Assembly: GCA_964460845.1 (NCBI GenBank)
Contig: CAYWRZ010000004.1
Location: 2,920-66,919, forward strand
DNA length: 64,000 bases
Reading direction: 5' to 3'
DNA from: an uncultured Weeksellaceae bacterium
GTDB lineage: Bacteria > Bacteroidota > Bacteroidia > Flavobacteriales_D > UBA2798
The position numbers and the translations under genes were made by a program. A model generated the notes under the pieces. That model was not told where the DNA came from. It searched no databases and saw only the letters and a program-made list of their open reading frames with translations. Shown one piece after another: positions 57,701-59,505 of the stretch (positions are counted from its first letter, which is position 1; the number at the start of each line of letters is the position of its first letter).

Positions 57701-58897
57701 ATGCCGAAAAAATATAGTCAGCTTTCCGTATATGATGCGGCGGTGCAGCGGCTTGAGTATGTCTATAGCCATTTTAAAAAAGTATATCTGTCATTCAGCG
57801 GAGGCAAAGATAGCGGGGTAATGCTCAATATGGCCATTGAAGCGGCTCGCCGTCAGAACCGTTTGCCGGTGCACGTGCTGGTCATTGATCTTGAAGCGCA
57901 ATACGATCACACGATCGAATTTATCCGGCGAATGACATCCCGCCCCGAGGTTAAAGCCTATTGGGTATGCCTGCCGATTCGCCTGCGTAATGCCGTAAGC
58001 CAGTTCCAGTCGCACTGGATGTGCTGGGATCCCTTCCGTCGTTCGGCCTGGGTGCGCGATTATCCCGAAAGCGATGCGGTGATCAAGGAAAAAGATTATT
58101 TCCCCTTTTTCCGGAACGGAATGGAGTTTGAAGAGTTTGTACTCGAATTCGGGAAGTGGTTTTCGGCCGGAGAAGAAACAGCCTGTCTGGTAGGTATCCG
58201 TAGTAACGAAAGTTTTAACCGCTACCGTACTATCGCTAATTTCAGGAAAGCGCGTTACCGCAAGCAGCAATGGAGTACCCGTATTGTGCCCGGCCTGTAT
58301 AATTTTTATCCCTTGTATGACTGGGCCACGCAGGATATATGGATCGCCAACGGGAAATACGCTTACGACTATAATCGTATTTATGATTTGATGCACCTTG
58401 CAGGGGTATCTTTACATCAGATGCGGCTCTGTCAGCCCTATGGAGACGATCAGCGGAAGGGACTGTACCTGTTCAAGATTCTTGAACCCGAAACATGGAC
58501 GCGTCTGGTGAACCGTGTCGAAGGTGCTAATTTCGGCAACCGTTACTCGTCGAATAACCGTACCGTTTTCGGTAATTTTCGGATGAACCTGCCCGAAGGA
58601 CATACCTATAAAAGCTATGCGTCTTTTCTGCTCGATACCATGCCGCCTTATCTTCGTGATCATTACAGTGAAAAGATCCGAAAATTCTTAAAGTATTGGG
58701 GAAAAAACGGTTATGCGCAGGATATTCCCGATGCGGCCGATCCGAAGCTGGAGGCACAGCGCAAAGCGCCTTCCTGGAGGAGAATCTGTAAGGTATTGCT
58801 CAAAAATGACTATTGGTGCAAAGGGCTTTCTTTTGCGCAAACCCGGGGCGAAATGCAGCGTCAGCTAACCTTGTTTTTAAAATATCATCACCAATGA
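57701..58897 (+). CDS. IbrA/YbdN-like PAPS-reductase-family protein (DUF3440)
   Basis: PP-loop SFSGGKDS, IDLEAQY, WVCLP, VGIRSNESFNR, PLYDW..DIW, MRLCQPYGDDQR, PSWRRICKVLLKNDYWCKGLSF. Confidence 0.88.
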   Translation: MPKKYSQLSVYDAAVQRLEYVYSHFKKVYLSFSGGKDSGVMLNMAIEAARRQNRLPVHVLVIDLEAQYDHTIEFIRRMTSRPEVKAYWVCLPIRLRNAVSQFQSHWMCWDPFRRSAWVRDYPESDAVIKEKDYFPFFRNGMEFEEFVLEFGKWFSAGEETACLVGIRSNESFNRYRTIANFRKARYRKQQWSTRIVPGLYNFYPLYDWATQDIWIANGKYAYDYNRIYDLMHLAGVSLHQMRLCQPYGDDQRKGLYLFKILEPETWTRLVNRVEGANFGNRYSSNNRTVFGNFRMNLPEGHTYKSYASFLLDTMPPYLRDHYSEKIRKFLKYWGKNGYAQDIPDAADPKLEAQRKAPSWRRICKVLLKNDYWCKGLSFAQTRGEMQRQLTLFLKYHHQ

Positions 58898-59505
58898 TAA
58901 AAGAGATTCTGAAACCCTACACCCAAGCTACGTTCGATGAAAAAGTAGAAATTTACAATCAGATTTCACAGCAGTTGTATCAGTTTCTCGGATTAAACCA
59001 ACCGGTGTTGAATGTGCAGTTGGTACCACTGGAAGAGATAGAAGCCAACGATTATAACCCCAATAAGGTGGCTCCCCCCGAAATGCGTTTGCTGGAGCTT
59101 TCTATCCGCAAAGACGGACTTACGATGCCTGTGGTGGTAGCGAATGAAAAAGGAAAGAAAAAACGTGTTATTGTCGATGGCTTTCATCGTACGGCCGTGT
59201 GCAGGAGCACGCCCGAAATCAGGAAGAAGCTCCGGGGTTATCTGCCTGTTACACATCTTAACAAAACGCTTGAGCACCGAATTACCGCTACGGTTCGTCA
59301 TAATATGGCGCGGGGCACGCATCAGGTAGAGCTCTCGGCGAGGTTGGTCACCTTTCTCAAACGAAACGACTGGAGCAATATCCGAATCGGGGAGGAGCTG
59401 GGCATGGATGCCGACGAAGTGCTGTGGCTCAGGCAGATTACCGGCCTGGCAGAAGCATTCAGGGATCAGGAGTTTTCCCGTTCCTGGGAAGTGCGTGGAG
59501 AATGA
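58894..59505 (+). CDS. IbrB/YbdM-like ParB/Srx-fold protein
   Basis: ANDYNPNKVAPPEMRLLELSIRKDGLTMPVV, IVDGFHR, TVRHNMARG, LGMDADEV. ATGA overlap with the upstream gene. Confidence 0.9.
   Translation: MIKEILKPYTQATFDEKVEIYNQISQQLYQFLGLNQPVLNVQLVPLEEIEANDYNPNKVAPPEMRLLELSIRKDGLTMPVVVANEKGKKKRVIVDGFHRTAVCRSTPEIRKKLRGYLPVTHLNKTLEHRITATVRHNMARGTHQVELSARLVTFLKRNDWSNIRIGEELGMDADEVLWLRQITGLAEAFRDQEFSRSWEVRGE

Follow-up and report, generated by a model that had tools for sequence, protein, structure and literature searches.

Gene Organization of the ibrA/ibrB Locus

The gene pair described here lies in a 64,000-nucleotide stretch of DNA, hereafter the window, from an uncultured Weeksellaceae bacterium (GenBank assembly GCA_964460845.1, contig CAYWRZ010000004.1, positions 2,920 to 66,919 of the forward strand). 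The locus is an intact copy of the IbrA/IbrB cassette, whose members are named YbdN/YbdM in Escherichia coli, and forms a self-contained two-protein unit outside any larger system of the window. Its parts are as follows:

57701..58897, + strand: ibrA/ybdN-like gene, encoding a 398-aa PP-loop ATP pyrophosphatase of the 3'-phosphoadenosine-5'-phosphosulfate (PAPS) reductase clade (residues ~1-235), whose remaining part (~235-398) is a helical DUF3440 domain
58894..59505, + strand: ibrB/ybdM-like gene, encoding a 203-aa protein with a ParB/Srx-fold N-domain of the DGxHR type and a helix-turn-helix (HTH)
58894..58897, + strand: ATGA start/stop overlap of ibrA and ibrB, read directly from the sequence

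The ATG of ibrB at 58894 overlaps the TGA of ibrA at 58895-58897, and homologues share the same start methionine ('MI.EIL'); the overlap indicates that the two genes are probably translationally coupled. The translations place the PP-loop SFSGGKDS at residues 31-38 of IbrA and the motif VIVDGFHR at residues 92-99 of IbrB. An earlier, sequence-only reading of this stretch had described a two-gene unit with an ATGA overlap, an SGGKDS PP-loop, several cysteines, and an IVDGFHR motif, all of which are present at the positions that it gave. It had also named the family correctly, as an IbrA/IbrB-like pair of a PAPS-reductase-fold PP-loop enzyme and a ParB/Srx protein, and was right to regard the unit as stand-alone and its biochemistry as unresolved. 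The pair in the window is an ordinary further member of the known IbrA/IbrB family, for which the biochemistry as a whole is unsolved.

Domains and Conserved Residues of IbrA

Pfam divides IbrA into a PAPS_reduct domain (1.1e-13, 52 bits, cut-off 22.5) and a subsequent DUF3440 domain (6e-38, 130.8 bits, cut-off 25). The AlphaFold (AF2) model of the protein (predicted local distance difference test, pLDDT, 91.8) superposes on E. coli K-12 YbdN over the full length (Foldseek E 6e-38, template modelling (TM) scores 0.89/0.87, 393 aligned residues, 38% identity), which places the pair in the IbrA/IbrB, or YbdN/YbdM, family. The DUF3440 domain of the window copy is divergent, as the Pfam model matches it in two pieces while two other genomes of the phylum match over the full length (E 1e-90). 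No solved-structure match covering this domain was obtained with Foldseek or with an exhaustive VIA-align search, and a sequence search of the solved structures with IbrA gave no match. Among the longer family members, no domain fusions beyond PAPS_reduct plus DUF3440 were found, except for one probable chimera with an ABC fragment.

The solved folds closest to the N-terminal ~235 residues of IbrA are the PAPS domain of flavin adenine dinucleotide (FAD) synthase (Z 16.1), adenosine-5'-phosphosulfate (APS) reductase (Z 15.4), and CysD (Z 15.2), while TilS (Z 12.3) and the Fe-S tRNA thiolase NcsA (Z 11.7) rank lower. CysD, flavin mononucleotide (FMN) adenylyltransferase, and (P)APS reductase supply the nearest solved folds (Z 14.6-16.1), and IbrA has the canonical SGGKDS expected of an ATP alpha-phosphate transferase. 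Unlike these enzymes, IbrA carries DUF3440 as an additional domain and is obligately paired with a ParB-fold protein. Its NCBIfam matches (CysD, DndC, LarE, and CysH) are all far under the family cut-offs, with 33.8 bits against 195 for CysD and 19.2 bits against 154 for the PAPS/APS reductase CysH (PRK02090). CysH is further defined by a C-terminal catalytic cysteine in ECGLH, whereas C373 of IbrA, in the context WCKGL, is kept in only 48% of the family.

Residue conservation was assessed over 73 family members with identities down to 28%. Invariant or near-invariant residues (>=90%) are S33, G35, K36, D37, and S38, together with D63, E65, W117, R167, E170, S171, R174, D207, D212, Y228, R242, and R272. 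By contrast, none of the six cysteines of IbrA (positions 90, 108, 162, 244, 363, and 373) is invariant; the best is C90, which is conserved at 89% and replaced by A, V, or Q, and the other five (C108, C162, C244, C363, and C373) are conserved at 21-49%.

Fold and Motifs of IbrB

IbrB reaches 18.4 bits on the Pfam model ParB_N, under the cut-off of 26.3. Its AF2 model (pLDDT 80.6) has Noc, KorB, and ParB (N-domain plus HTH) as top Foldseek matches (E 7.6e-8 to 1e-5), with sulfiredoxin and the kinases SerK/SbnI ranking next. Three motifs are invariant, NDYNPN (52-57), DGxHR (95-99), and RHNxARGxH (135-143), and no cysteine is conserved. The comparison with sulfiredoxin is limited accordingly, as the latter has its catalytic cysteine in FGGCHR where IbrB has DGFHR.

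A profile alignment with the ParB CTPase clamps (ParB/Noc/KorB) puts NDYNPNK of IbrB on box I (NPYQPRK) and DGFHR on box II (GERR). IbrB differs from these clamps in the catalytic residues, with Q changed to N and E to F (GERR to GFHR), and in its C-terminus, since the model ends after the HTH and has no dimerisation domain. The alignment of the two boxes therefore shows IbrB as a protein without the ParB catalytic Q and E, in the DGxHR (Srx/DndB-like) branch.

Distribution, Pairing, and Mobility of the Family

The IbrA family comprises 399 clusters at 50% identity (E<=1e-30). Close homologues of the window IbrA, at 65-78% identity, come from several Bacteroidota orders, and no ortholog was found among 40 relatives (11 of the same family and 29 of the same order). 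In an even sample of 300 other genomes from the phylum, four matched DUF3440 (E<=0.001), three of them (~1%) above the cut-off. The identity to copies of Desulfovibrio and other Proteobacteria (56-61%) is similar to that to the Prevotella copy (62%). This patchy spread, with similar identity across phyla, points to horizontal transfer and indicates that the window cassette was probably acquired in this way, as an isolated 1.8-kb accessory insert of the chromosome. The GC (guanine plus cytosine) content of the insert is not deviant. The two closest IbrA relatives stand in quite different gene contexts, and the relatives were too distant for synteny to delimit the insertion borders, NA37, the nucleoid-associated gene next to ibrB, alone being common to them. 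A search for flanking repeats or insertion scars yielded only short repeats at chance level.

Most copies reside on phages, prophages, and plasmids: the family is present in 732 plasmid records, 224 phage records (among these, phages of Flavobacterium, Mycobacterium, and Streptococcus), and at least 577 viral contigs of IMG/VR. IbrA/IbrB were previously reported in Flavobacterium phage FCL-2 and prophage 6H (PMC4541368). The pairing is strict: wherever a genomic locus extends far enough to hold it, IbrB adjoins IbrA, and the same is true of 78 out of 80 viral loci. Where IbrA precedes IbrB (93 loci), 54 pairs overlap and another 21 are separated by a gap of <=30 nt (75/93 together), and the identities of the two proteins drop in parallel across loci (for example, 74/71, 62/64, 59/58, 52/51, and 47/45% for IbrA/IbrB). 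The only recurrent extra partner is a SNF2 helicase, which lies immediately upstream of the pair in about a quarter of the loci (11/36 genomic and 17/~72 viral). No such partner was found in the window, and the query used found no homologue in the genome.

Some copies have additional genes. In Desulfovibrio and other proteobacterial loci, an extra open reading frame (ORF) of ~140 aa without a Pfam match lies between ibrA and ibrB (L022:9201-9632, L025:9185-9610, and similar loci), and Bacteroidales versions have a ~107-aa ORF before the SNF2 gene. On a conjugative plasmid of Vibrio cyclitrophicus (NZ_CP135178.1, 22230-37396; locus L048), IbrAB lies within ~7 kb of a tryptophanase gene (tnaA) and ~1.2 kb upstream of a gene for an aromatic amino-acid transporter.

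One alternative concerns metabolism: IbrA might adenylylate a small phosphate- or sulfate-type substrate, as CysD and FMN adenylyltransferase do, with IbrB working as an Srx/SerK-like kinase or NTPase on that metabolite, which could for instance be a nucleotide used in signalling or a toxic one. The solved folds nearest to IbrA all belong to enzymes of small molecules, sulfiredoxin and the serine kinases SerK/SbnI are among the matches of IbrB, and many loci lie among metabolic genes, e.g., tryptophanase in Vibrio, and transporters. However, IbrB has a conserved HTH domain, the recurrent partner is a SNF2 DNA motor, and no metabolic neighbour recurs across phyla, so that a small-molecule pair appears improbable.

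The closest described relatives are YbdN/YbdM of E. coli and the IbrAB island of strain ECOR-9, which share with the window pair the arrangement of PAPS_reduct plus DUF3440 followed by ParB/Srx plus HTH in two genes; E. coli plasmid copies are 46% (IbrA) and 44% (IbrB) identical to it. Unlike these, the window copy has no adjacent LysR regulator and no prophage or eib context. The E. coli systems also bring in a second alternative, in which IbrB would bind DNA as a switch of the KorB/Noc type and change the transcription of target genes, IbrA would process a cofactor or nucleotide as its partner, and the DNA would carry no covalent modification. The transcriptional repressor KorB, together with Noc, is among the best matches of the IbrB model. 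The ibrAB genes of ECOR-9 reportedly activate prophage eib genes (Sandt et al. 2002, cited in PMC8065619 as ref. 174), and their annotation reads 'co-activator of prophage gene expression'. Moreover, ybdNM of E. coli is repressed by its own dedicated LysR regulator, YbdO/CitR (PMC9068703). Nevertheless, a plain regulator would not need an invariant, always translationally coupled PP-loop enzyme, nor would it be expected to travel with a SNF2 translocase. The cassette is also carried by phage FCL-2, for which integrase, repressor, and lysogeny were undetected (PMC4541368), and no conserved operator-like repeat was seen at the window locus. A purely regulatory pair is unlikely on these grounds.

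Comparison with DNA Phosphorothioation and Defence Systems

The sequence-only reading had proposed a DNA-modification or defence module with thiolation fed by SufS. In its general form, this alternative holds that the pair is a minimal anti-phage defence and/or Dnd/Ssp-like thiolation module that obtains sulfur from SufS or IscS. The resemblance on which it builds is that DndC/DndB likewise pair a PAPS-reductase-clade PP-loop enzyme with a ParB/Srx-fold DGxHR protein, the presumed logic in both being ATP activation of a DNA oxygen, and a rare, patchy accessory gene pair would also suit a defence role.

A genuine phosphorothioation-type island is present elsewhere in the same genome (contig C7:102000-114800; locus L069:719-12812) and so allows IbrA to be set against a true DndC. 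It encodes a SngB/BrxD-like ATPase, a SngC/BrxHI helicase, DndC (2e-143), DndD/PbeC (2e-280), a 524-aa fusion of DndE with a DndH-C/HerA-like part, and a DpdB/DndB-like ParB protein, with a tyrosine integrase just upstream (C7:99945-100430). IbrA is only 24% identical to this DndC, in the N-terminal core only, and has no counterpart to its FGCWVC (CxxC) motif. The PADLOC DndC model matches the DndC of the island at 2e-143 and IbrA at 1e-8, and on TIGR03183, which has a cut-off of 290.4 bits, IbrA reaches 27.5. Nor is IbrB significantly similar to the DpdB/DndB-like protein of the island, and no DndA, DndD, or DndE adjoins IbrA/IbrB.

The cysteines bear directly on the thiolation proposal. With no invariant cysteine in IbrA and no conserved one in IbrB, the cassette is without the Fe-S or catalytic-cysteine signature of DndC, TtuA, and LarE. 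Dnd-type thiolation by IbrA/IbrB is unlikely judging from these residues, and the suggested supply of sulfur by SufS is not supported.

The proposed defence role is not supported either. PADLOC gives IbrA only weak matches to a shared core (DndC, 32.6 bits, 1e-8; BrxP, 16 bits) and IbrB none. In a small sample limited to the immediate neighbours of 33 loci, the 54 nearest neighbours include nine SNF2 helicases (generic ZorD/DpdE/DrmD model matches) and, besides these, two matches to defence models, one ShosT and one PDC-M72A; the remainder encode transporters, regulators, and metabolic functions, with a few genes of phages or recombinases. The copies themselves are mostly on phages and plasmids, and the genome already has its own complete DndC/DndD/DndE/DndB-like island. 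Overall, a defence or Dnd/Ssp-like thiolation module is quite improbable. A BREX type 4 BrxP identity for IbrA was rejected as well, given the 16-bit match over 37 residues and the absence of Brx/Pgl matches among nine neighbouring proteins.

The statement that dndBDE genes are missing from the window agrees with our searches, in which the DndB and DndE families match only contig C7 and not the window contig (C4). Prophage and ssp genes had likewise been described as absent; a tyrosine integrase has no match on the window contig, and Ssp and other phage genes were not searched for.

Proposed Function of the IbrA/IbrB Pair

The reading that we tentatively favour, at a likelihood approaching but not reaching even, is that IbrA/IbrB perform an IbrB-targeted, ATP-dependent (adenylylating) modification of DNA and are carried as mobile-element cargo. 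A DNA-directed reaction is favoured because of the invariant PP-loop and the D63/E65, R167/E170/S171/R174, and D207/D212 motifs, and because the nearest folds are those of enzymes forming or cleaving AMP-phosphate or AMP-sulfate anhydrides. The obligate DNA-binding ParB-fold partner, the frequent SNF2 motor, and the carriage by phages and plasmids argue in the same direction.

According to this proposal, IbrB would contact DNA with its HTH, its ParB/Srx pocket probably placing this binding under the control of a nucleotide, and would recruit or license IbrA. IbrA would then use ATP to adenylylate a DNA oxygen (phosphate or base carbonyl), with release of pyrophosphate, as the activating step, and the adenylylated site would be substituted or otherwise covalently modified. 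The chemistry would presumably differ from Dnd-type sulfur insertion, because the family is without conserved cysteines or Fe-S ligands. The most likely role would be that of mobile-element cargo which marks or remodels DNA, e.g., for self-marking, anti-restriction, or control of gene expression.

A precedent for such a role of IbrB is provided by DpdA/DpdB, the 7-deazaguanine DNA-modification system, in which a ParB-like NTPase assists the DNA-modifying enzyme and SNF2 helicases occur in the cluster (PMC12839542). The SNF2 partners of IbrAB match the DpdE, ZorD, and DrmD models, which extends the likeness to other SNF2-containing islands. The two systems differ in that no enzyme of the tRNA-guanine transglycosylase (TGT) family accompanies IbrAB, and the SNF2 partner is absent from the window.

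Several points weigh against the proposed modification of DNA. The DNA target and the adenylylation step are derived from folds and gene neighbourhood, and no family member has a demonstrated substrate; a literature search for a defined IbrA/IbrB activity returned only annotation-level mentions, the paper on YbdO/CitR regulation, and the PANGU preprint discussed below. The enzymes with the closest solved structures have small molecules (FMN, sulfate, and APS) and not DNA as substrates, and three quarters of the loci are without a helicase. IbrB lacks the ParB catalytic residues, its use of a nucleotide being only proposed, and the sequence data would also be compatible with a sulfur donor acting in trans. 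The only genetic data are the activation of eib and the repression of ybdNM in E. coli, and both would fit a regulatory reading equally well.

A more specific version of the favoured DNA modification is possible but rather doubtful. The pair might constitute a new two-component DNA-modification machine, in which a ParB/Srx-fold DNA loader guides a cysteine-free PP-loop adenylyltransferase in installing a non-sulfur adduct (e.g., AMP, or an amine/amide substitution) on DNA; its benefit to phages and plasmids would lie in countering restriction or in reprogramming genes that are silenced. If so, the Bacteroidota copy would be a compact, helicase-free version fit for biochemistry.

IbrA/IbrB are among the most widespread mobile-element cassettes without a known reaction, with a copy also in E. 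coli K-12, and elucidation of that reaction could bring to light a hitherto undescribed DNA modification or show the ParB fold in a new use. To this family the window adds one more copy that is clean and minimal, with no helicase, regulator, or prophage as part of the cassette.

Neighbouring Genes and the Region Upstream of ibrA

The following features surround the gene pair in the window:

55143-56924, - strand: UvrD-like superfamily 1 (SF1) helicase, 593 aa, matched by the PADLOC GajB UvrD-helicase models (best 1.7e-18, 64.6 bits)
57109-57498, + strand: small globin gene, upstream of ibrA
57622..57650, + strand: sigma-70-like promoter match TTGACA-17-TATTTT, 50 nt upstream of the ibrA ATG; weak evidence only
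59506-60552, - strand: NA37 nucleoid-associated gene, convergent with ibrB
Also among the window neighbours, by domain annotation: an AraC regulator and a type IX secretion system (T9SS) sorting domain, the latter pointing to Bacteroidota

The UvrD-like helicase and the convergent nucleoid-associated protein are arranged as the sequence-only reading had described them. A functional link of the cassette to the helicase, the globin, or NA37 was considered and rejected, as none of the three has a tblastn match at the 122 IbrAB loci searched (42 genomic, 80 viral). The helicase and NA37 flanks are best read as chance neighbours. The helicase was not found in 20 relatives either, which makes it an accessory gene itself, and no GajA partner for it was found among the neighbouring genes scanned.

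At the other end, the stop codon of ibrB (TGA, 59503-59505) directly abuts that of NA37 (TCA on the + strand, 59506-59508) with zero intergenic bases, which leaves no room for a terminator between the two genes for either transcript; accordingly, none was found there. This close contact suggests one more alternative, modelled on PANGU, in which the adjacent YejK/NA37-type nucleoid protein would sense phage-induced genome damage with IbrAB as the effector. Nucleoid-associated proteins (NAPs) resembling YejK have been reported in a 2026 preprint as phage sensors, in operon clusters that contain a PAPS reductase (Cluster8) or Arc plus ParBc (Cluster9) (10.64898/2026.04.06.716658). However, those clusters are defined by a NAP in the same operon as the effector, with a gap of <40 bp, and are confined to Bacillota and Pseudomonadota (10.64898/2026.04.06.716658), whereas the genes in this Bacteroidota window are convergent and form no operon. 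NA37 is single-copy in the genome and belongs to a uniform 348-aa Bacteroidota family, three close homologues of it (~60% identical) stand alone beside unrelated genes, and, as noted above, it was not met at any other IbrAB locus. A PANGU-like arrangement is therefore highly improbable.

Upstream of ibrA, the sigma-70-like match agrees with the consensus at 10 of 12 positions, and such sites are no more numerous in this region than in shuffled sequence. Promoters of Bacteroidota follow a consensus other than the sigma-70-like one. The match overlaps a GGGG...CCCC hairpin followed by a T-rich run (57616-57665), located 3' of the globin gene, which could be the globin terminator and/or the promoter of ibrA.

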